Part shown: positions 3,811-63,101 of the stretch, piece by piece
Numbering within the stretch: position 1 is the first letter of the stretch
Layout: each line of letters begins with the position of its first letter
Assembly: GCA_944389345.1 (NCBI GenBank)
Contig: CALXMA010000001.1
Span: forward strand, 1,623 to 65,622
DNA length: 64,000 bases
From: an uncultured Alphaproteobacteria bacterium
GTDB lineage: Bacteria; Pseudomonadota; Alphaproteobacteria; Rs-D84
Direction of reading: 5' to 3'
Program-made: the position numbers and the translations under genes
Notes under the pieces: model-generated
What the model was told of the DNA's origin: nothing
Database searches by the model: none
Seen by the model: the letters and a program-made list of their open reading frames with translations, nothing else

Positions 3811-5109
3811 TTACCGATTGGCCTGTTGGAACAATTCTTCGGGCTTTACGACCTTTTCTTTTGTTTTGACATGCGACAGCATCGCATCCAGTGCCTTGCG
3901 TTCAAAAATCATTCCACGCAACATAGCCAATGCGTTTTGATTCTTGTTATAGAATTCAAATACCTGTTTGGGGTCCGGATAGCGTGATGCTTCGGCCCAG
4001 ACGGCCTGTTGCAGGTCTTCACGTGTAACCTCTACGTGATTATGTGTGCCCCATTCCGCCAAAATCAGACCCAATTTAACGCGACGTTCGGCGTCTTTGC
4101 GTTCCTTTTTATCGTCCCATTTTTCGCCGTCGTTGTTGCCGTTGGCATGCGTGCGGTCGAATTCTTGTTTTGCCATGTTCAATTCTTGGTCAACCAAGAC
4201 GTCTGGCAAATCCAATTTTACTTTGTCGGCCAATACGTCCAACAATTCGTTGCGCATTTCACGCTTTGATGCGTCTTCGTATTGATCGTTCAAGACTTTG
4301 CGGATGTATTCGCGCAATTTTTCAACGGATTCATGACCAACAGATTTCGCCAATTCGTCGTTTAATTCCGGCAATTTGTGCTTGCGAACTTCGTGTACTT
4401 TGACCGCAAAGCGCGCATCGCGACCCGCCAAATTTTTCGCGTGATAATCCGCCGGGAATTTTACGTTTACGTCAAATTCATCACCGGATTTGTGGCCAAT
4501 AACCTGGTCTTCGAAGCCCGGAATAAATGCACCCGATCCCAGAACCAGGTGATGTTTTTCCGCGGATCCACCTTCGAATGCATCGTCGCCAATAAAGCCA
4601 CGGAAATCAATAACCGCCGTGTCGCCGTTTTGTGCAACATAGTCGGCGTCTTGTTTTTCCGCAGTACTGCGCGATTTGCGGATGTTTTCCAGTGATTTTT
4701 CAACCTCGGATTCATCCAATGTGGTGGTCTTTTTGGTGATTGTGAATTTTTCCAGGTCAATTTCTGGCAGTGTCGGTAAAATGTCGAATTCCAATGTGTA
4801 TTCGGCATCTTTGCCAATTTCCCAACCGGCCAAGTCGGCCTTGGGCGTGCCCGCCAGGCGCAATTTTTTGTCCGTGATATAGTCGTTCAAATCGCGGTTC
4901 ATTAATTTGTCGACCGCGTCTGACAATGCGGATGCGTTATATTTCTGGCGCAAAATAGACAATGGAATGTGTCCCGGACGGAACCCAGGCATTTTAACCT
5001 TTTTGCCGTATTCGATTAAGATTTCGTCGGCGGCGGTCTGTAATTCATCGGCCGAAATGACGCCGTTTACTGAATAGTGCAAATCTTTTATTTTTTCTTT
5101 TTTGAACAT
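3811..5109 (-). CDS. tig: trigger factor
   Basis: MFKKEK...VKMPGFRPGHIPLSILRQKY ribosome-binding signature and FKBP-like middle domain (GFIPGFEDQVIGHK); ATG at 5109. Confidence 0.95.
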   Translation of the reverse strand: MFKKEKIKDLHYSVNGVISADELQTAADEILIEYGKKVKMPGFRPGHIPLSILRQKYNASALSDAVDKLMNRDLNDYITDKKLRLAGTPKADLAGWEIGKDAEYTLEFDILPTLPEIDLEKFTITKKTTTLDESEVEKSLENIRKSRSTAEKQDADYVAQNGDTAVIDFRGFIGDDAFEGGSAEKHHLVLGSGAFIPGFEDQVIGHKSGDEFDVNVKFPADYHAKNLAGRDARFAVKVHEVRKHKLPELNDELAKSVGHESVEKLREYIRKVLNDQYEDASKREMRNELLDVLADKVKLDLPDVLVDQELNMAKQEFDRTHANGNNDGEKWDDKKERKDAERRVKLGLILAEWGTHNHVEVTREDLQQAVWAEASRYPDPKQVFEFYNKNQNALAMLRGMIFERKALDAMLSHVKTKEKVVKPEELFQQANR

Positions 5110-5231
5110 TGTATTTCCCCTAAGAATAAGCAAATTGCTGTGTGATTATACACAGTTTTTTTATAAACGCAATAATAAGTTGTTGGGTGGGGTGTCTTTT
5201 TTATTTGCTTGTGTTTGTTTTGTGGTGGGTA

Positions 5232-5482
5232 TATAATATTACCTGTCGACGGGTGTTCCGTTGATGGGGTGTGGAAACCTCGGTGATAGCGTCGTGGTAT
5301 TGATTATGGCGCGTGGATGCGCTGTTTTTATTATTGCGATGAAAAGTAAACTCCTGATTTTTGCGTCAGGAGGGTCGCGAAATATCAAATACGCGACACA
5401 ATTCTATCAATTGTTTCCAACCTCCTGACCACCAAGTAAAACTGGTGGTTTTTTCATTACGAAAAAATCAGGAGTACGAACA
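5232..5482 (+). promoter_or_regulatory. structured 5' leader copy 1 (promoter -10, multi-helix RNA, intrinsic terminator 5428-5454, RBS): candidate riboswitch/attenuator
   Basis: Alignable block by block with 42790-43016 and 53175-53379; P1 5246-5264, AGCGTCG 5288-5294, A/B/C elements 5351-5357/5365-5373/5421-5429, CAATTCT-N4-ATTGTT 5399-5415. Confidence 0.7.
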
Positions 5483-6031
5483 ATGAAAACAAAATTTATA
5501 TTACCCATCGGGGTATTTGCGATACTAACCACAATGCCCAACATCGCCCACGCATTGTCCAGCAGTATGACCCATTGCATGGAAACAGGCTTGGGACAGG
5601 CGAATTGCACCTGTGCCGGTGGAACCAACGCTGGTGCAAAGTGCTCAGTAGATTCGCAATGTCCCGGCAGTATATGCTCCAACAGTGGTGGCGGTATAAC
5701 GCCGCCCACGCCCACCATTTGCACCCCAGCAACCTGCAAACCGACCACAACCGGTTGGGGTTCATGCGGTGTTGGCGCCAATTCGTATGTCGAATGCGAA
5801 GCAACCGCCGAATGCAGGGGCAGTTTGTGTGTACGTGGCCAAAATTACCGTTGTGTTGCCGGCGCCTATGGCAACCCCAGCGCATCAAACAAAACCGCCT
5901 GTGCACCATGCCCATCGCCCGGAACATCGGCCGCGGGTTCGACCAGTCAATCTGATTGTTATATCCCGGCCGGAACCACCGGTTCGGACAGTACGGGCAC
6001 GTATAAATATACGGCCAATTGTTATTACTGA
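5483..6031 (+). CDS. secreted Cys-rich protein, family member 1 (ephrin-receptor-like/GCC2_GCC3-type CxxC repeat, conserved C-terminal module)
   Basis: Signal peptide MKTKFILPIGVFAILTTMPNIAHA; 17 Cys in the mature part; C-terminus CAPCPSPGTSAAGSTSQSDCYIPAGTTGSDSTGTYKYTANCYY shared with the 35294 and 43295 genes. Confidence 0.8.
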   Translation: MKTKFILPIGVFAILTTMPNIAHALSSSMTHCMETGLGQANCTCAGGTNAGAKCSVDSQCPGSICSNSGGGITPPTPTICTPATCKPTTTGWGSCGVGANSYVECEATAECRGSLCVRGQNYRCVAGAYGNPSASNKTACAPCPSPGTSAAGSTSQSDCYIPAGTTGSDSTGTYKYTANCYY

Positions 6032-6054
6032 CGCATTTCCCCCAAAAAAACATT

Positions 6055-6078
6055 CCCCCATTTTGGGGGATGTTTTTT
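6055..6078 (+). terminator. intrinsic terminator after the Cys-rich gene
   Basis: stem ccccc/ggggg (6055-6059/6065-6069) followed by a T-run. Confidence 0.6.
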
Positions 6079-6108
6079 ATTGCGTATATGGTGCACCATT
6101 TCCATAAA

Positions 6109-6137
6109 AAAATCCGCCAAACGGCGGATTTTTTTGT
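6109..6137. terminator. intrinsic terminator downstream of rpsI
   Basis: aaaaaaatccgccaaacggcggattttttt hairpin flanked by A and T runs. Confidence 0.65.
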
Positions 6138-6149
6138 GTTCGACACAGA

Positions 6150-6641
6150 TTAACGTTTGCTGAACTGGGTGGAACGACGCGCCTTGTGATGACCAAAGTG
6201 CTTACGTTCAACAACACGGCTGTCGCGTGTCAAGAATCCAGCAGACTTTAATGTCTTGCGTAAATCTGGTTCGGCCTTTTCCAATGCCTTGGAAATACCG
6301 TGTTTCACGGCGCCCGCCTGGCCCGACAGACCACCACCAGATACGATGGCGTGTACGTCGTATGCGGTTTCACGTTTTGTGATACCAAACGGTTGTGCAA
6401 TAATCATTTGCAACACCGGACGACGGAAATATTCCGCACATGGAATGCCGTTAACAATAATCTGGCCCTTGCCCGCAACCAGGTATACACGGGCAACGGA
6501 ATCTTTACGTTTGCCCGTGGCGTATGTCGCGTTAGACAATTTTACAGTTGCCACGGCCTTTTTCGCACTAGATTTTGCCGGGGCGGCACGTTTTGTTGTT
6601 TTTGTTGCTGTCTTGGTCGCAGTCTTTTTTGCTTCTGTCAT
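6150..6641 (-). CDS. rpsI: 30S ribosomal protein S9 with Lys/Ala/Thr-rich N-terminal extension
   Basis: [14 protein letters not shown]...[19 protein letters not shown]...[18 protein letters not shown]. Confidence 0.95.
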
Positions 6642-34973: not shown

Positions 34974-35293
34974 TTGCTTTTCTTGTGGTACTAAATTATA
35001 CTGTTTTGTGAATCCAAATGGATATTGGGTTCGGGGTCGTCAAAAAGCCCTTAATCAAAGCAATGTCGCAAGGCATTGAATACTATCCGCTGTACGAAAA
35101 TACGTGGCGCGGTTTGCGCCGTTTGTGTTTTTGTATACCCCGATTTATAGGTCGGGGGGCCGTCGGTTATACCACAGGATTTTATCCAAAGACCGATGGG
35201 ATCATTTCTTTGATTATGATTTTTTGACCTCCCCGGCCGCCAATATTTTGTTGGCGGTTTTTGCTTTTAACAAAAATGCAAAGGGGGAAAATA
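34974..35293 (+). promoter_or_regulatory. divergent copy of the structured leader (promoter TTGCTT-N17-TATACT, helices, terminator 35237-35262, RBS)
   Basis: Same architecture as copy 1: hairpin ggcgc-ggttt-gcgcc (35106-35120), A ccccga 35138-35143, B tcgggggg 35152-35159, C cctcccc 35228-35234, terminator ccgccaa/ttggcgg plus T-run. Confidence 0.5.
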
Positions 35294-35851
35294 ATGAAAA
35301 TCAAAATCAGCGCACTGGCGTTGTTGGTGATTGCAACAATGCCAGATGTCGCACTGGGCAGGTGTGCTCCAATATATTTGCTACCTGGCGAAACCTGTGT
35401 AAGTGCCGGCGGTGTTATATGCGGGGACGGTTCGTGTTATAAGTGTTGCGATGCGGGTAACGAACCGGGTTTGCCAATTTGTGGTACTGGGGTGTATACT
35501 ACAACCACGGAAAGTTTTTCTGATTACAAAGGCAGTGGCACAAAAACGTATAGAAAATATAAAATTGAATGTAGGTGCCCAGACGGCAGTATATCAAAAT
35601 GTTGGCAAAGCACCACATATACATCATGCAATGCCGGGTATTATAAAAGTGGCGGATCGTGTAATGCGTGTCAAAAAGGAACGTATAAATCGTCCGCCGG
35701 GACCGCGACATCTTGTACGTCGTGCACGTCGCCCGGCACGACCGCGTCAACCGGTTCAACCAGTTCATCGGACTGTTATATTCCGTCGGGGACAACCGGT
35801 TCAGACAGCACAGGCACGTATAAATATACGTCAAATTGTTATTGGAAATAA
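35294..35851 (+). CDS. secreted Cys-rich protein, family member 2
   Basis: Signal peptide MKIKISALALLVIATMPDVALG; C..C..G.Y repeats; C-terminus CTSCTSPGTTASTGSTSSSDCYIPSGTTGSDSTGTYKYTSNCYWK. Confidence 0.8.
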   Translation: MKIKISALALLVIATMPDVALGRCAPIYLLPGETCVSAGGVICGDGSCYKCCDAGNEPGLPICGTGVYTTTTESFSDYKGSGTKTYRKYKIECRCPDGSISKCWQSTTYTSCNAGYYKSGGSCNACQKGTYKSSAGTATSCTSCTSPGTTASTGSTSSSDCYIPSGTTGSDSTGTYKYTSNCYWK

Positions 35852-42789: not shown

Positions 42790-43016
42790 TATAATTTCGT
42801 TGTTGACGGGTGTTCCGTCAATGAGGCCTCAAGAACCTCTGCCTTAGCGTCGGCGTAATCTTTGCGCAGACGATAAACATGCTCCTGGACTTAATGGTTC
42901 AGGAGGAGTTGCAAAATACCCAATATGCGACGCAATTCTAAGGATTGTTCTTGACCTCCTGAACCACCACTATGTTGCGGTGGTTTTTTTTACAAAAAAC
43001 TCAGGAGAAAGAACTT
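42790..43016 (+). promoter_or_regulatory. structured 5' leader copy 2 (TATAAT 42790-42795, helices, terminator 42962-42991, RBS 43001-43007)
   Basis: P1 42803-42821, AGCGTCG 42846-42852, A 42882-42887, B 42896-42906, hairpin 42908-42931, CAATTCT-N4-ATTGTT 42933-42949, C 42955-42965. Confidence 0.7.
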
Positions 43017-43280
43017 ATGAAAAAACTTTGTTTGATTTGCGGAATCGCACTGTATTCCGCCAACGCGGGGGCCGCGTGTACAATCACAGACCATCCCGCA
43101 TCATGTGTCCAACAACCAGAATCTTGCAGTGGCGGATACTGTAAAACTGCGTATACGTATTCGGCACCACACAGAACATGCTCGTGCCCGATGAACTATT
43201 GTTGTTCGTGCGAAGAACAGGCAGAGCCCACATGTCGTTGTCCCACAACGGCCGGGGGTCGACCCTGTCCTGTGTGTTAA
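43017..43280 (+). CDS. small secreted protein, extremely Cys-rich (87 aa)
   Basis: Signal peptide MKKLCLICGIALYSANAGA; 13 Cys in the 68-aa mature part, including CSCPMNYCCSCEE and CRCP..CPVC; RBS TCAGGAG. Confidence 0.65.
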   Translation: MKKLCLICGIALYSANAGAACTITDHPASCVQQPESCSGGYCKTAYTYSAPHRTCSCPMNYCCSCEEQAEPTCRCPTTAGGRPCPVC

Positions 43281-43294
43281 AGGGGGGGGCGAAT

Positions 43295-43684
43295 ATGAAT
43301 ATGCATAAATCTGTGTTGGCCACCATGGTCATGGTGGCGGTGTTTGCCGTGGATTCTGTGTTCGCGGCATGTAATCCCGTCGGTACCAGTTGCAGTTCGT
43401 GCACAACGTATCGGTGTAATTCTGGGTATTATGGAACGGCGCGCAGTGCGTCCAGCGGATGTACAAAATGTCCGTCTAATGCGACGTGTGCCGGTGGCAA
43501 CGGGTCAACATTCGTTTGCGCCAAGGGATACTATAAAAGTGGCAGTTCTTGTGCCGATTGCCCGAATAACGGGACAACGTCCAGCACGGGCGCAACATCG
43601 ATATCCAGGTGCTATATCCCCAGCGGAACCACAGGGTCAGATTCCACAGGTACGTTCAAGTATGTTGGAAATTGTTATTACTGA
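43295..43684 (+). CDS. secreted Cys-rich protein, family member 3
   Basis: AGGGGGGG RBS; signal peptide MNMHKSVLATMVMVAVFAVDSVFA; C-terminus CADCPNNGTTSSTGATSISRCYIPSGTTGSDSTGTFKYVGNCYY. Confidence 0.8.
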   Translation: MNMHKSVLATMVMVAVFAVDSVFAACNPVGTSCSSCTTYRCNSGYYGTARSASSGCTKCPSNATCAGGNGSTFVCAKGYYKSGSSCADCPNNGTTSSTGATSISRCYIPSGTTGSDSTGTFKYVGNCYY

Positions 43685-52881: not shown

Positions 52882-52912
52882 AAAAAAAATCCCGCGGGGC
52901 GGGATAAAAAAA
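52882..52912 (-). terminator. intrinsic terminator downstream of tRNA-Ser(CGA)
   Basis: stem atcccgc/gcgggat with a T-run on the minus strand. Confidence 0.55.
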
Positions 52913-53010
52913 GACGGGCGCACCGCGTCCGTTTCATTGTGTTTGTGCCGTAATTGTACCATAAAATACGCAAAAATTCAATAAAAAATACCGCATTGCG
53001 GTATAAATCC

Positions 53011-53100
53011 TGGCGGAGACGAAGGGATTTGAACCCTTGATACGGTTGCCCGTATACGCGATTTCGAGTCGCGCGCATTCAACCACTCTGCCACGTCTCC
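53011..53100 (-). tRNA. tRNA-Ser (anticodon CGA), long variable arm, CCA encoded
   Basis: Reverse complement ggagacg..cgcga-ctCGAaa-tcgcg..variable arm..aaggg-ttcaaat-ccctt-cgtctcc-g-cca. Confidence 0.9.
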
Positions 53101-53174
53101 GACGAAGTGTGATTATACAGATTTCGTTTTTATTTGCAAGTGATTTTGACCTTGCATAACGCAATATATGTTTT

Positions 53175-53379
53175 TATAGTGATAACGATATGACGAGTTG
53201 TCATATCGGGGCTTCACAACCCTTTAACCAGCGTCGGTGACGACGATAAATATCCCCAATCTGTAATGGTTGGAGTGCGGTTAATATATTGAATACCCGC
53301 GCAATTCTGGTTAATTGTTGTGAAACTCCAACTACCTAGAATTTGTTGGTGGTTTTGTTTTTAACAAAAAGGGGCTTTT
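53175..53379 (+). promoter_or_regulatory. structured 5' leader copy 3 (TATAGT 53175-53180, helices, weak terminator, RBS) upstream of an outer-membrane protein gene
   Basis: P1 53186-53208 (loop GAGTT), AGCGTCG 53230-53236, B 53268-53276, CAATTCT-N5-ATTGTT 53302-53319, C 53325-53333, hairpin ccaac/gttgg plus T-run. Confidence 0.65.
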
Positions 53380-54048
53380 ATGAACAAAGCAATATTAACT
53401 GGTATATGTGCACTGGGACTGGTTGGAACGGCATGGGCAGAAACCGCGCCAGCATCGGAATTACCAATAAAGGTGTTCGTTGGTGCAAATCTGGCAATGA
53501 CAATGCCAGTATGGTCGAACGATGTAAATGACGTAATGGATCAAATAAGCACAGAATTACCGGGATTAAATTTAGGATTAGGGGGCGAAGCCGGTATAAA
53601 AATTGGTGCGATCGACAAAATATATAATTTTGGATTAAGTGTTGCGTATGATTATATGTTTGATTCTGCCGCAGAGATTGATTATCCATATGATCAATTG
53701 ATATACGAAATAAGCAATGGCTTTTCGGCCATCAGCGTTTTTTTTGATAATTATATAAGATTTGCTGACAACGCCGGCAAACGTAGCGATTTGGTCTTAG
53801 GTATCGGTTATACAAATGGTACAGAACGCATGCAAATGACGCCCGAGCAATTGGGATATGCATATGGATTGAATACAATAGATGTTGATGACACAGGATC
53901 TTTTGTTGGGTTAAAAATTGGATACTTGCAACAAATTACATCAAATCTAGATTTTTCTGCCATGTTACGTGTATTGATTCCGACAGGTAACGGAGGCGAT
54001 GTCGATTCTATATTTAATCTGAGTGCCGGAATTAGATATAATTTCTAA
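53380..54048 (+). CDS. outer-membrane beta-barrel protein (OmpA-like barrel/OmpW-size)
   Basis: Signal peptide MNKAILTGICALGLVGTAWA; alternating amphipathic strands; C-terminal GIRYNF ending in Phe. Confidence 0.65.
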   Translation: MNKAILTGICALGLVGTAWAETAPASELPIKVFVGANLAMTMPVWSNDVNDVMDQISTELPGLNLGLGGEAGIKIGAIDKIYNFGLSVAYDYMFDSAAEIDYPYDQLIYEISNGFSAISVFFDNYIRFADNAGKRSDLVLGIGYTNGTERMQMTPEQLGYAYGLNTIDVDDTGSFVGLKIGYLQQITSNLDFSAMLRVLIPTGNGGDVDSIFNLSAGIRYNF

Positions 54049-58617: not shown

Positions 58618-59087
58618 TAAACAATATTTTTCCTAATATGCGGTCGGCAATCTATATCCATCGCCACTGCCACCGCCAGTATTACAGCCACACAACGCCA
58701 ACACAATTATCAACGTAGTATATCTTTTCTTTTTCTCTCCCCTTTATGGATACCTAATTAAAAAGACCGCCAACAAGAATTGACGGTCGGGGAGTTCGTA
58801 AATCACTATGGCGTTGATTCCGTTGGCCTTTGGATAAAACCTTTTGTATAACCAACAGCTTCCCGACACGCAGTCGAGTGATAATCTAACGATACAATGG
58901 TGTGGAATACTGGATTACGACAACACTGTGCCGGCTATAGCAGAGCTTACGACAGCCCCGAACCCAATTCCCATTGGATTCAACCAGTATTATATCAGGA
59001 ATTTATGTAATTGTAAATAGTGGACATAAATTAAACCACCACCGATGAAACCCAATAAAAATATATACAGCCAGATAAAATCATGTA

Positions 59088-60992: not shown

Positions 60993-62532
<1,540 letters not shown>

Positions 62533-62582: not shown

Positions 62583-62659
62583 TCGCGACGGAAACTGGCA
62601 CTGCCGTTGCCGCCATCACCCGCCCGAATATGAATCTTTGCTTTATCTAGAAACTTCAT
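62583..62659 (-). repeat. 77-nt duplicate of the obgE 5' coding end, forming a 32-codon upstream ORF
   Basis: Identical to 62408-62484 except for 5 substitutions, all synonymous; reads [32 protein letters not shown]. Confidence 0.85.
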
Positions 62660-62739
62660 CTGTTTTTTCTTTGTTTTTGGTCATTATAACTTAAAAACTT
62701 GCATTTGCCACCATAAATATTATAATTGTTTTGTCGCAA

Positions 62740-63050
62740 TTGCGATGATGATTCTGAACCCGTTGCGGAATAGTCGTTATGGACTGGGGGGCGGTACCCC
62801 ACAGCTCCACCAATAAATTCTTCATGGGGCTGACATAGTTTCGACAGGCGAAATAAAGGCAAATCGGTTGAATCCGACGTGGCGTCGTAAAAAGCCAAAT
62901 AAAAACTGAATGGCGATAGAATCGCTGCGAACGACAACGTTCGCCTTGCAATGGCTGCCTAATTGGCGTTTGGATATAATTGGCGATTGTTGATTGTATC
63001 CGTTTAGCCTTATTGCGGGGTCGCTGGGTACCCGGCAACAGAAACCCAGC
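62740..63050 (+). ncRNA. ssrA: tmRNA (ssrA), circularly permuted two-piece type; outer boundaries approximate
   Basis: Acceptor piece ends ...ggac-tgggg-ggcggta-cccca-cagctccACCA at 62812. The coding piece starts GGGGCTGAcatagTTTCGACagg at 62826. Tag ORF 62927-62962 reads ANDNVRLAMAA*. Confidence 0.8.
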
Positions 63051-63101
63051 GTGATGTTTATAACAAACCGCTGTGAATCAAATAAATAAAAAGGTTAAAA
63101 T

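Follow-up and report, generated by a model that had tools for sequence, protein, structure and literature searches.

The window analyzed here is a 64,000-nucleotide (nt) stretch of DNA from an uncultured alphaproteobacterium of the lineage Rs-D84 (GenBank assembly GCA_944389345.1, contig CALXMA010000001.1, positions 1,623 to 65,622). Between a tRNA-Ser(CGA) gene (53011-53100, minus strand) and an open reading frame (ORF) of 222 codons (53380-54048) it contains a segment that we identified as the structured 5' leader of the mRNA of that ORF. We refer to this leader as copy 3; it belongs to what is apparently a large and undescribed family of structured mRNA leaders in the Rs-D84 gut Alphaproteobacteria. 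Rs-D84 and Candidatus Enterousia, both uncultured, occur widely in the guts of animals and humans; Enterousia is a member of the order Rs-D84, whose genomes are mostly smaller than 1 Mb (PMC12306168). The elements of the locus are as follows.

53152-53180, plus strand: putative sigma-70 promoter read from the sequence, TTGCAT-17 nt-TATAGT (TATAGT at 53175-53180)
53186-53379, plus strand: the leader copy studied (copy 3, class II), 5' leader of the mRNA of the candidate beta-barrel gene
53186-53208, plus strand: P1 hairpin, CGAUAUGAC / loop GAGUU / GUCAUAUCG, present in the minimum-free-energy fold
53209-53223, plus strand: P2 hairpin, GGG (53209-11) with CCU (53221-23), from covariation
53213-53220, plus strand: PKa, UUCACAAC, in the P2 loop, pairing with 53317-53324
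53225-53231, plus strand: PLRa, UAACCAG, forming a long-range helix with CUGGUUA (53307-53313)
53230-53236, plus strand: AGCGTCG, a sequence motif whose AG sits in the long-range helix, not in P3
53232-53245, plus strand: P3 hairpin, CGUCG-GUGA-CGACG, the short form, from covariation
53254-53259, plus strand: element A, CCCCAA, pairing with UUGGAG of B to form hairpin P4
53268-53276, plus strand: element B, GGUUGGAGU, Shine-Dalgarno-like, with A or C as its partner
53277-53300, plus strand: P5 hairpin, GCGG/CCGC with the conserved loop UUAAUAUAUUGAAUAC, from covariation
53302-53319, plus strand: CAATTCTggttaATTGTT, a sequence motif
53302-53317, plus strand: CAAUU-(CUGGUUA)-AUUG, from covariation; the centre is PLRb (53307-13) and the flanks can form the alternative hairpin P6
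53317-53324, plus strand: PKb, GUUGUGAA (also given as GTTGTGAA), pairing with the P2 loop (53213-20)
53325-53333, plus strand: element C, ACUCCAACU, anti-Shine-Dalgarno-like (CCUCCU); its final 2 nt also open the terminator 5' arm
53332-53362, plus strand: terminator-like hairpin read from the sequence, CUACC..GGUGG (53332-36 / 53348-52), then UUUUGUUUUU
53369-53382, plus strand: Shine-Dalgarno sequence AAGGGG (53369-74) and start codon ATG (53380-82)
53380-54048, plus strand: the regulated gene, an ORF for a 222-residue protein with a signal peptide and the C-terminus ..GIRYNF

Several of these elements had been listed in an earlier, sequence-only reading of the stretch. Everything on that list, including P1 (cgatatgac/gagtt/gtcatatcg), GGG..CCC(T), cgtcg-GTGA-cgacg, B (ggttggagt) and the gcgg..ccgc hairpin with its AAUA-rich loop, was present within ±1 nt of the positions given there. 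Element C, read as 'aactccaac', is also present, although at 53324-53332, since 53325-53333 reads ACTCCAACT. The motif AGCGTCG had been called invariant, which is true among three copies in the window but not of the family as a whole, in which it varies (AGTGTC, AGCATC, AGCGTCT and others). A weak hairpin ccaac/gttgg with a T-run can indeed be read, but the in-register stem is CUACC/GGUGG. The secondary structure proposed in that reading corresponds to the second of two alternative folds described below (Fold 2), and it omits element A, the helices PK and PLR and the thermodynamically dominant Fold 1.

The -35 box of copy 3 is weak (3/6 match) and the promoter was missed by a simple scan. A -10 box with the consensus ATAAT was found at a constant distance from P1 in nearly all of 80 aligned leader copies, and transcription would be expected to start about 6-8 nt past it, at the foot of P1. 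As the upstream neighbor is a tRNA-Ser gene on the opposite strand, the leader needs a promoter of its own. The RNA from 53186 to 53362 has a predicted folding energy of -65.3 kcal/mol, compared with -40.6 ± 4.2 kcal/mol for 200 dinucleotide shuffles (z = -5.93), none of which was as stable.

A collection with one genome per species was scanned with the pattern CAATTCT-N4-6-ATTGTT-NNNNAN-CTCC, which returned at least 118 loci. About 80 of the loci listed were genuine full leaders, and the others were chance matches in unrelated taxa. With the exception of three contigs, the genuine leaders listed were all in gut metagenome-assembled genomes (MAGs) named Candidatus Enterousia, uncultured Alphaproteobacteria or 'Rickettsiales bacterium', from hosts that include rabbit, chicken, horse, sheep, goat and deer. 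Three good leader copies (L086, L109 and L129) occurred in a single bin, CAVGNU01, labelled Bacteroides fragilis; its leader contigs are probably mis-binned Enterousia-like sequence. At least four copies were recovered from each of four MAGs. An alignment of 80 distinct leader copies (A2), which included copy 3, was used to build a covariance model (R1) of 232 positions and 47 pairs, and a search of 86 sources with R1 identified at least 105 leader copies (alignment A3), about 25 of them without the search pattern. A scan of the window with R1, run with the filters off, found five copies, which are described further below.

The pairing of the leader is strongly supported by covariation. Alignment A3 has 50 pairs, with 95.3% of cells paired compared with 73.0% after shuffling, and 45 of the 50 pairs had changed on both sides. 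Its covariation score was 0.534, compared with 0.164 for shuffled alignments and 0.04-0.07 when partners were slid. A structure-blind MAFFT alignment gave similar results (90.3% paired; score 0.419 vs 0.158). Covariation was found in each of P1, P3, P5, the terminator stem, PK and PLR. For P1, 97% of cells were paired and compensatory changes occurred in 7/7 modelled pairs (105 copies); for P3 the corresponding values were 98.5% and 4/4 covarying pairs, and the P5 stem was 97% paired and covaries around a loop motif, AAUAU..AAUA, that is nearly invariant. P2 was 84% paired and showed some covariation (pair 47:67 being GC in 65 copies, GU in 17 and AU in 15). The P6 flanks co-vary in divergent copies, in which they read CUAUU/AAUAG, CUAU/GUAG or AUCAU/AUGAU.

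The two best-supported helices were PK and PLR. In PK, the partner of the P2 loop is the GUUnnnn located after AUU, and as this helix crosses the local P2 stem it forms an H-type pseudoknot; it was 99.7% paired in A3 and 98.8% paired in the MAFFT alignment, with pair 57:422 being CG in 38 copies, GC in 37, AU in 21 and UA in 4. PLR joins the bases immediately 5' of GCGUC to the variable centre of CAAUUCUnnnnAUUG, with 98.9% paired in A3, 94% in the MAFFT alignment and four pair types at the variable positions. For PK, PLR, P1 and P3 it is the pairing that has been kept and not the sequence. Sequence conservation is instead centred on the P5 loop GAAUAUAUUGAAUAAG, on CACAAUUCU, on AUUG and on elements B and C, all of which are parts of the three-way junction of Fold 2.

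Elements A, B and C allowed the copies to be divided into three sequence classes, among which the three elements change together.

Class I: A CUCCUGA / B UCAGGAGG / C CCUCCUGA; long P3 insert (40-60 nt, with an inner GC hairpin)
Class II, the class of copy 3: A CUCCAA / B GGUUGGAG(U/G) / C (A/C)CUCCAAC; short P3
Class III: A CCCCGA / B UCGGGGGG / C CUCCCCGG; different P1

Three other ideas about the leader were set aside. A distal pairing of the 5' GGGG with the CCUC of element C, which RNAfold favored, showed no covariation above shuffles or slid controls and was dropped for the local P2. Two ideas considered by eye were a pyrimidine-purine-pyrimidine triplex of A, B and C, whose parallel register does not suit class II, and CsrA-type GGA sites, which are absent from the class III element B.

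These data bear directly on the idea that the copies have no function as RNA and represent a DNA repeat similar to miniature inverted-repeat transposable elements (MITEs) or repetitive extragenic palindromes (REPs), or a 5' untranslated region (UTR) carried along by gene duplication, the last of which was already disputed in the sequence-only reading. There are many copies per genome, five in the 64-kb window alone, and some copies are degenerate or truncated (window 58748-58993, L013 and L025), as would be expected of a repeat. The compensatory changes in 45/50 pairs effectively refute it, and the copies have a fixed orientation and distance to the start codon, precede unrelated gene families, lack terminal inverted repeats and had no genuine representatives in viral contigs. 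Eight pattern matches in viral contigs were chance matches, and a phage origin was rejected. The leader sequence is also under purifying selection: the leaders of orthologs of copy 3 were 87.5-93% identical, as conserved as codon positions 1+2 of their genes (91-93%) and far above position 3 (69-73%), i.e., they have evolved like non-synonymous codon positions. The earlier claim that this is a functional RNA and no by-product of duplication gains from the covariation of all the other helices as well as from that of B:C. We consider it very likely that the segment is a functional, cis-acting structured leader.

The position of the leader relative to genes was highly constrained. In 102/102 copies for which a downstream ORF was called (of 105), leader and ORF were co-oriented; the end of the model was a median of 13.5 nt from the start codon in these 102 copies and within -15..+45 nt of it in 95 of them. 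This is difficult to reconcile with the copies being independent genes for trans-acting small RNAs that merely happen to be upstream of other genes, an explanation that we regard as very unlikely. A -10 box and a terminator in each copy would indeed predict a discrete RNA of about 190 nt, and other copies have sub-threshold matches (28 to 36.6 bits) to the small RNA family sRNA-Xcc1. However, the tails between terminator and start codon are short (about 28-60 nt in the copies examined) with no separate gene promoter evident in them, and the PK and PLR sequences differ between copies of one genome, which makes a shared trans target unlikely. A leader-peptide attenuator was also rejected, since class I has an ATG after P1 (GAUGGGG) that class II lacks (AUUGGG), and neither frames nor stops are conserved.

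The central feature of the leader is that element B can pair with either of two partners. The A:B hairpin P4 was 94% paired and covaries by class (CUCCUGA, CUCCAA, CCCCGA), and the B:C helix was 93.3% paired and also covaries, as had been proposed from the coordinated changes in its two strands. Both helices use the same nucleotides of B. Pair 298:425 (G-C in 72 copies, U-A in 23) is outside A:B and so provides independent support for B:C. The B:C helix includes the first C of the 5' arm of the terminator in 97/101 copies and the second in 49; in copy 3, G53269-C53332 and G53268·U53333 occupy the first two bases of CUACC. The terminator itself has the family consensus CCACCAA-N4-8-UUGGUGG-U5 and was 90% paired.

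Based on these pairings we defined two alternative folds. Fold 1 combines PK, PLR and A:B with the full terminator. In Fold 2, B:C encloses P5 and P6 (CAAU/AUUG) in a three-way junction. The P6 loop is PLRb, and the last P6 pair uses the first PKb base, so that P6 together with B:C competes with PLR and PK. Fold 1 was more stable than Fold 2 in 98/98 copies, by a median of 12.8 kcal/mol, and it was the exact minimum-free-energy structure in 53 of the 98. For copy 3, both the minimum-free-energy fold and the centroid fold were Fold 1.

The dominance of Fold 1 in every copy is consistent with a constitutive structural leader that would stabilize the mRNA or tune its translation, as does the ompA 5' UTR, with the terminator-like hairpin being a stability element and elements A, B and C setting a fixed, low access for ribosomes. 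The small overlap of B:C with the terminator, and a weak terminator in copy 3 that a scan did not detect, are in keeping with the same explanation. It is, however, hard to see without switching why both of the exclusive pairings of B have been kept by covariation across three classes, and the presence in about 100 copies of a G+C-rich hairpin with a U5-6 run, immediately ahead of the Shine-Dalgarno sequence, is a signature of attenuation. We therefore consider a constitutive role to be improbable.

Our best explanation as a whole, to which we give slightly less than even odds, is that the leader is a conditional attenuator of the riboswitch type, i.e., a two-fold switch with an effector. The component of this reading in which switching of B between A and C controls the terminator and the Shine-Dalgarno sequence we hold to be probable. 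In the ground state, Fold 1, PK and PLR would close a multi-helix 5' domain in which B is locked in A:B and C is left free. The complete terminator hairpin and its U-run would then form and transcription would stop before the gene (OFF), and in any transcript that had read through, C could cover the Shine-Dalgarno sequence. In Fold 2, B:C would occupy the two bases that open the terminator stem and would free the Shine-Dalgarno sequence, and the gene would be expressed (ON). We propose that the effector binds the sequence-conserved three-way junction and thereby tips the co-transcriptional choice to Fold 2. The placement of the effector site on the junction, and with it the reading of an ON switch, is based on sequence conservation being located in the Fold 2 junction while the helices of Fold 1 keep their pairing only. 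Control would therefore be a relay of four elements: A, B, C and the Shine-Dalgarno sequence.

The Shine-Dalgarno part of this relay differed between classes. A CAGGAG-type Shine-Dalgarno sequence, complementary to C and A over 6-7 nt, was present in 25/49 class I tails vs 2/35 class II tails, and in minimum-free-energy folds of the whole mRNA, C paired with the Shine-Dalgarno region in 25/49 class I and 6/33 class II copies. An attempt to detect co-evolution of C and the Shine-Dalgarno sequence through duplex energies gave a small effect, in that own pairs were only about 0.4-0.9 kcal/mol better than cross-class pairs, leaving the CAGGAG enrichment in class I as the only clear signal. Separately, we observed that the terminator U-run can pair with an A-run just before the Shine-Dalgarno sequence, e.g., UUUUUCAUUUCGAAAAA (window 53353-53370; 48/84 copies), which would produce a small extra hairpin in read-through transcripts.

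Several observations weigh against a switch of this kind. The overlap between B:C and the terminator is only 1-2 nt, shorter than that of most antiterminators, and both helices might therefore coexist, for instance coaxially stacked; likewise PK, PLR and P6 might coexist in one knotted fold and not alternate. The terminator stem of copy 3 is weak (5 bp including a G-U) and was not called by a simple scan, and its A:B is mismatched. The duplex of C with the Shine-Dalgarno sequence differed little in energy (own -9.9 vs -9.1 kcal/mol across classes), which indicates little co-evolution. For one of the window copies, the minimum-free-energy fold at full length has A paired with the Shine-Dalgarno sequence while B:C is formed, in which case the ribosome site might still be covered in the ON state. 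In addition, the support for PK and PLR is slightly inflated because the 80 seed copies were accepted partly on PK or PLR complementarity. The approximately 25 copies found by the model only are free of this selection and are included in the 105-copy alignment, which is 95% paired as a whole, and the seed copies are recognized independently of PK and PLR, with the rest of the leader giving >100 bits. Lastly, the regulated surface-protein genes give no pointer to a metabolite ligand.

With regard to the weak terminator, copy 3 and a 95%-identical relative (L010) share a weakened 5' arm, CUACCUAG..UUGGUGG, whereas most orthologs of copy 3 have a clean CCACCAA..UUGGUGG terminator. Similarly, the single C-A mismatch of element A with B in copy 3 is absent in orthologs, most of which have CUCCAA.

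For the effector of the conditional attenuator, our leading candidate is a small molecule or ion, which would make the leader an ON riboswitch; we put forward a small-molecule effector only tentatively. The leader has two of the features by which riboswitches are recognized, namely a covariation-supported domain in the 5' UTR and mutually exclusive pairings that touch the terminator or the Shine-Dalgarno sequence, with a predicted effect on them. The same two-fold attenuator could alternatively respond to a protein or trans-acting RNA, such as an antiterminator of the BglG/RAT (ribonucleic antiterminator), ANTAR or PyrR type that would bind the P5 loop and CAAUU/AUUG and stabilize B:C. Fold 2 is far less stable than Fold 1, so substantial stabilization would be needed, and the long, nearly invariant single-stranded motifs GAAUAUAUUGAAUAAG and CACAAUUCU could as readily be a recognition site for a protein or RNA as a ligand pocket. 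The diversity of the surface proteins in the regulon also fits such an effector, as it points to no metabolite, and in genomes of <1 Mb (PMC12306168) it would be economical to exert global control through a single factor that acts on many leaders. On the other hand, no candidate protein gene was found adjoining the leaders, none of the protein-binding-leader families in Rfam matched, and RAT and ANTAR proteins bind short hairpins, whereas a complex, pseudoknotted fold with numerous covarying helices is more usual in riboswitch aptamers. On balance we consider a protein or RNA effector rather unlikely, and somewhat less so a small molecule.

A search of the whole window with Rfam 15 (4227 models, including all riboswitch classes) at gathering thresholds identified only tRNAs and a transfer-messenger RNA (tmRNA), and permissive scans of 52900-53500 and 5150-5550 produced no family at threshold. 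We found no description of the leader motif in the literature on Enterousia, Rs-D84, riboswitch candidates and sRNA-Xcc1. The only recurring sub-threshold Rfam match was to sRNA-Xcc1, for which window copy 1 scored 28.0 bits and two class III copies scored 36.6 and 35.9 bits, compared with a gathering score of 53; copy 3 itself had no match to it at E ≤ 10. The sRNA-Xcc1 family (RF02221) represents a small RNA of 88 nt that is free-standing in Xanthomonas campestris and reported to be specific to X. campestris pv. campestris (PMC2996969). The three helices of its model align to B:C (as the outer, G/C-rich helix), to P5 (with an AUA..AAUA loop) and to P6, followed by a C-rich tail. However, whereas sRNA-Xcc1 stands alone at about 88 nt, the match in the leader is the 3' half of an mRNA leader of about 190 nt that starts about 130 nt upstream, and the leader has an extra 5' domain that pairs into the matching segment. 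Membership of the leader in this family is not supported; a distant relationship with its junction module is a lead suggested by the cmscan alignments. A further sub-threshold match, on both strands, was to Wolbachia sRNA 46 (RF02625; 44 bits vs a gathering score of 65) at L053 5740-5887, near a leader locus in an Enterousia MAG.

Among known systems, the leader most resembles transcription-attenuating riboswitches in having a long 5' leader that runs from the transcription start, a domain of several helices with a pseudoknot and conserved nucleotides at the junction, mutually exclusive pairings that involve a predicted intrinsic terminator and the Shine-Dalgarno sequence, many copies per genome and an envelope-rich regulon. 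It differs from them in matching no Rfam riboswitch model, in its four-element relay, in the terminator overlap of only 1-2 nt and in a copy density that is very high for genomes of <1 Mb. The closest functional analogues are the cyclic di-GMP-I and -II riboswitches, which are present in many copies per genome ahead of genes for surface, adhesin and secreted proteins. T-box leaders are likewise long, structured and present in many copies per genome, with a conserved distal element choosing between terminator and antiterminator, but here neither T-box nor specifier features were present and Rfam gave no match, the downstream genes have no relation to aminoacyl-tRNAs and the lineage is alphaproteobacterial. 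The leaders controlled by BglG/SacY at RAT sites and by ANTAR proteins share a default terminator that is overridden when a weaker helix overlapping its 5' arm is stabilized. In those systems the target is one short hairpin (RAT) or a pair of hairpins with hexaloops (ANTAR), unlike the pseudoknotted domain of about 190 nt observed here.

We raise as a possibility, less likely than not, that the leader is a new riboswitch class that senses a second messenger, an ion or a host-derived compound and directly controls dozens of secreted and outer-membrane proteins in Rs-D84. If so, its regulon would possibly comprise several percent of the genes, and in organisms that have few protein regulators the leader would act as the master switch of the cell-surface proteome. 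The small RNA sRNA-Xcc1 of integrons would then be a relative of its ligand-binding three-way junction that stands alone. With five genes behind one leader type in 64 kb, and at least four copies in each of four MAGs, much of the secreted and outer-membrane proteome, which is the interface with the host or other microbes, would be under one RNA-based control. Its unusually rich covariation and two conserved alternative folds make the leader a well-supported orphan switch, through which a new ligand or RNA-binding regulator could be approached tractably, as well as a handle on the regulation of cysteine-rich surface proteins.

The 222-residue protein encoded behind copy 3 had no Pfam match even at E ≤ 10. 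Its AlphaFold model was of low confidence (pLDDT 53.7) with eight long strands, and the best small-barrel matches of this model in Foldseek were the OmpA transmembrane domain and OmpX, none of them at E ≤ 0.001. The sequence-only reading had called this an outer-membrane beta-barrel gene. The signal peptide, the ..RYNF end and the eight strands are in line with that description, to which neither Pfam nor Foldseek added a significant match, and an 8-stranded outer-membrane beta-barrel is plausible on the basis of the model. Only eight relatives were found in a large protein database, all of them close (80-95% identity), and the contigs of the relatives (L001-L013) have the same leader and the same synteny; orthologs of copy 3 outside the seed scored 144-156 bits under R1. 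In one of these contigs (L013, 2845-3012) the leader ends after CAATTCTGGT and is joined to an N-terminally truncated beta-barrel gene (170 residues), a natural deletion variant.

Across the family, the at least 105 leader copies precede dozens of unrelated protein families, which bears out the earlier observation that the motif recurs ahead of different kinds of gene. The proposed tie to exported or envelope proteins was found to be a strong tendency rather than a rule. A crude test classed 74/99 distinct downstream proteins as signal-peptide-like, and several others have obvious signal peptides that the test missed, which puts the share at roughly 75-80%; a minority of the genes, mostly behind class II leaders, lack a signal peptide and encode small non-secreted proteins or proteins of about 300 residues. 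Many of the downstream proteins are cysteine-rich, 120-270 residues long and share a C-terminal module ending ..SDSTGxYxYTxNCYY, and others are small beta-barrels. In a Pfam census of 86 downstream proteins most had no family, the matches being Ephrin_rec_like (three), OMP_b-brl (two), Opacity and Flg_new, and no metabolic theme was evident among them. The C-terminal module is about 30 residues long, ends ..GSDSTGTYKYTxNCYY and follows highly variable N-terminal parts (window 5936-6026, 35753-35843 and 43589-43679, and many other loci); it may serve to sort or anchor the members of a large family of surface proteins.

The five leader copies in the window, with their R1 scores, are as follows.

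5233-5467, plus strand: leader copy 1, class I, 189.8 bits; precedes a 182-residue cysteine-rich secreted protein
42791-43002, plus strand: leader copy 2, class I, 140.3 bits; precedes an 87-residue cysteine-rich secreted protein
53176-53371 (R1 extent), plus strand: leader copy 3, class II, 150.5 bits; in the model seed
34998-35276, plus strand: leader copy 4, divergent, class III (CCCCGA / UCGGGGGG / CUCCCCGG), 45.8 bits, E 2.6e-11
58748-58993, minus strand: leader copy 5, degenerate, class III, 27.3 bits, E 3.6e-6

A blastn comparison of the copy 3 region with the window identified parts of three of the others, at 42869-42999 (E 7e-6), 5382-5466 (E 5e-5) and 35240-35276 (E 3.7e-4). The protein that follows copy 4 is cysteine-rich and secreted, 185 residues long, and has an Ephrin_rec_like domain. 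Downstream of copy 5 (to 58640) there is only a lipoprotein-like short ORF ending ..KKKRYTTLIIVLALCGCNTGGGSGDGYRLPTAY*, which has no ATG and a poorly spaced TTG as its sole start codon; it resembles a gene in decay. Copy 2 is followed by a gene (43017-43280) that, with an 87-residue product whose homolog of 80 residues lies behind a matching leader in L126, overlaps by about 100 nt with an out-of-frame ORF (43178-43684) that bears the conserved C-terminal module. This arrangement could be either a frameshifted fusion or two genes.

Two unusual arrangements of the leader were observed in other genomes. A complete 958-kb MAG (OZ007020.1) contains a 'half leader' (L025, 7369-7570; 69 bits) with only P5, P6, C and the terminator, and an unrelated hairpin in place of the 5' domain. 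Divergent, back-to-back pairs of leaders 36-76 nt apart were found at L032 (3878-4067, minus strand, and 4103-4294, plus strand) and L113 (5695-5886, minus strand, and 5962-6156, plus strand), with each leader preceding a paralogous gene. Elsewhere in the window, the tmRNA is of the two-piece (permuted) alphaproteobacterial type (62695-63052), and just upstream of it is an 84-nt direct repeat whose two units (62408-62491 and 62583-62666) are 92% identical and 175 nt apart.

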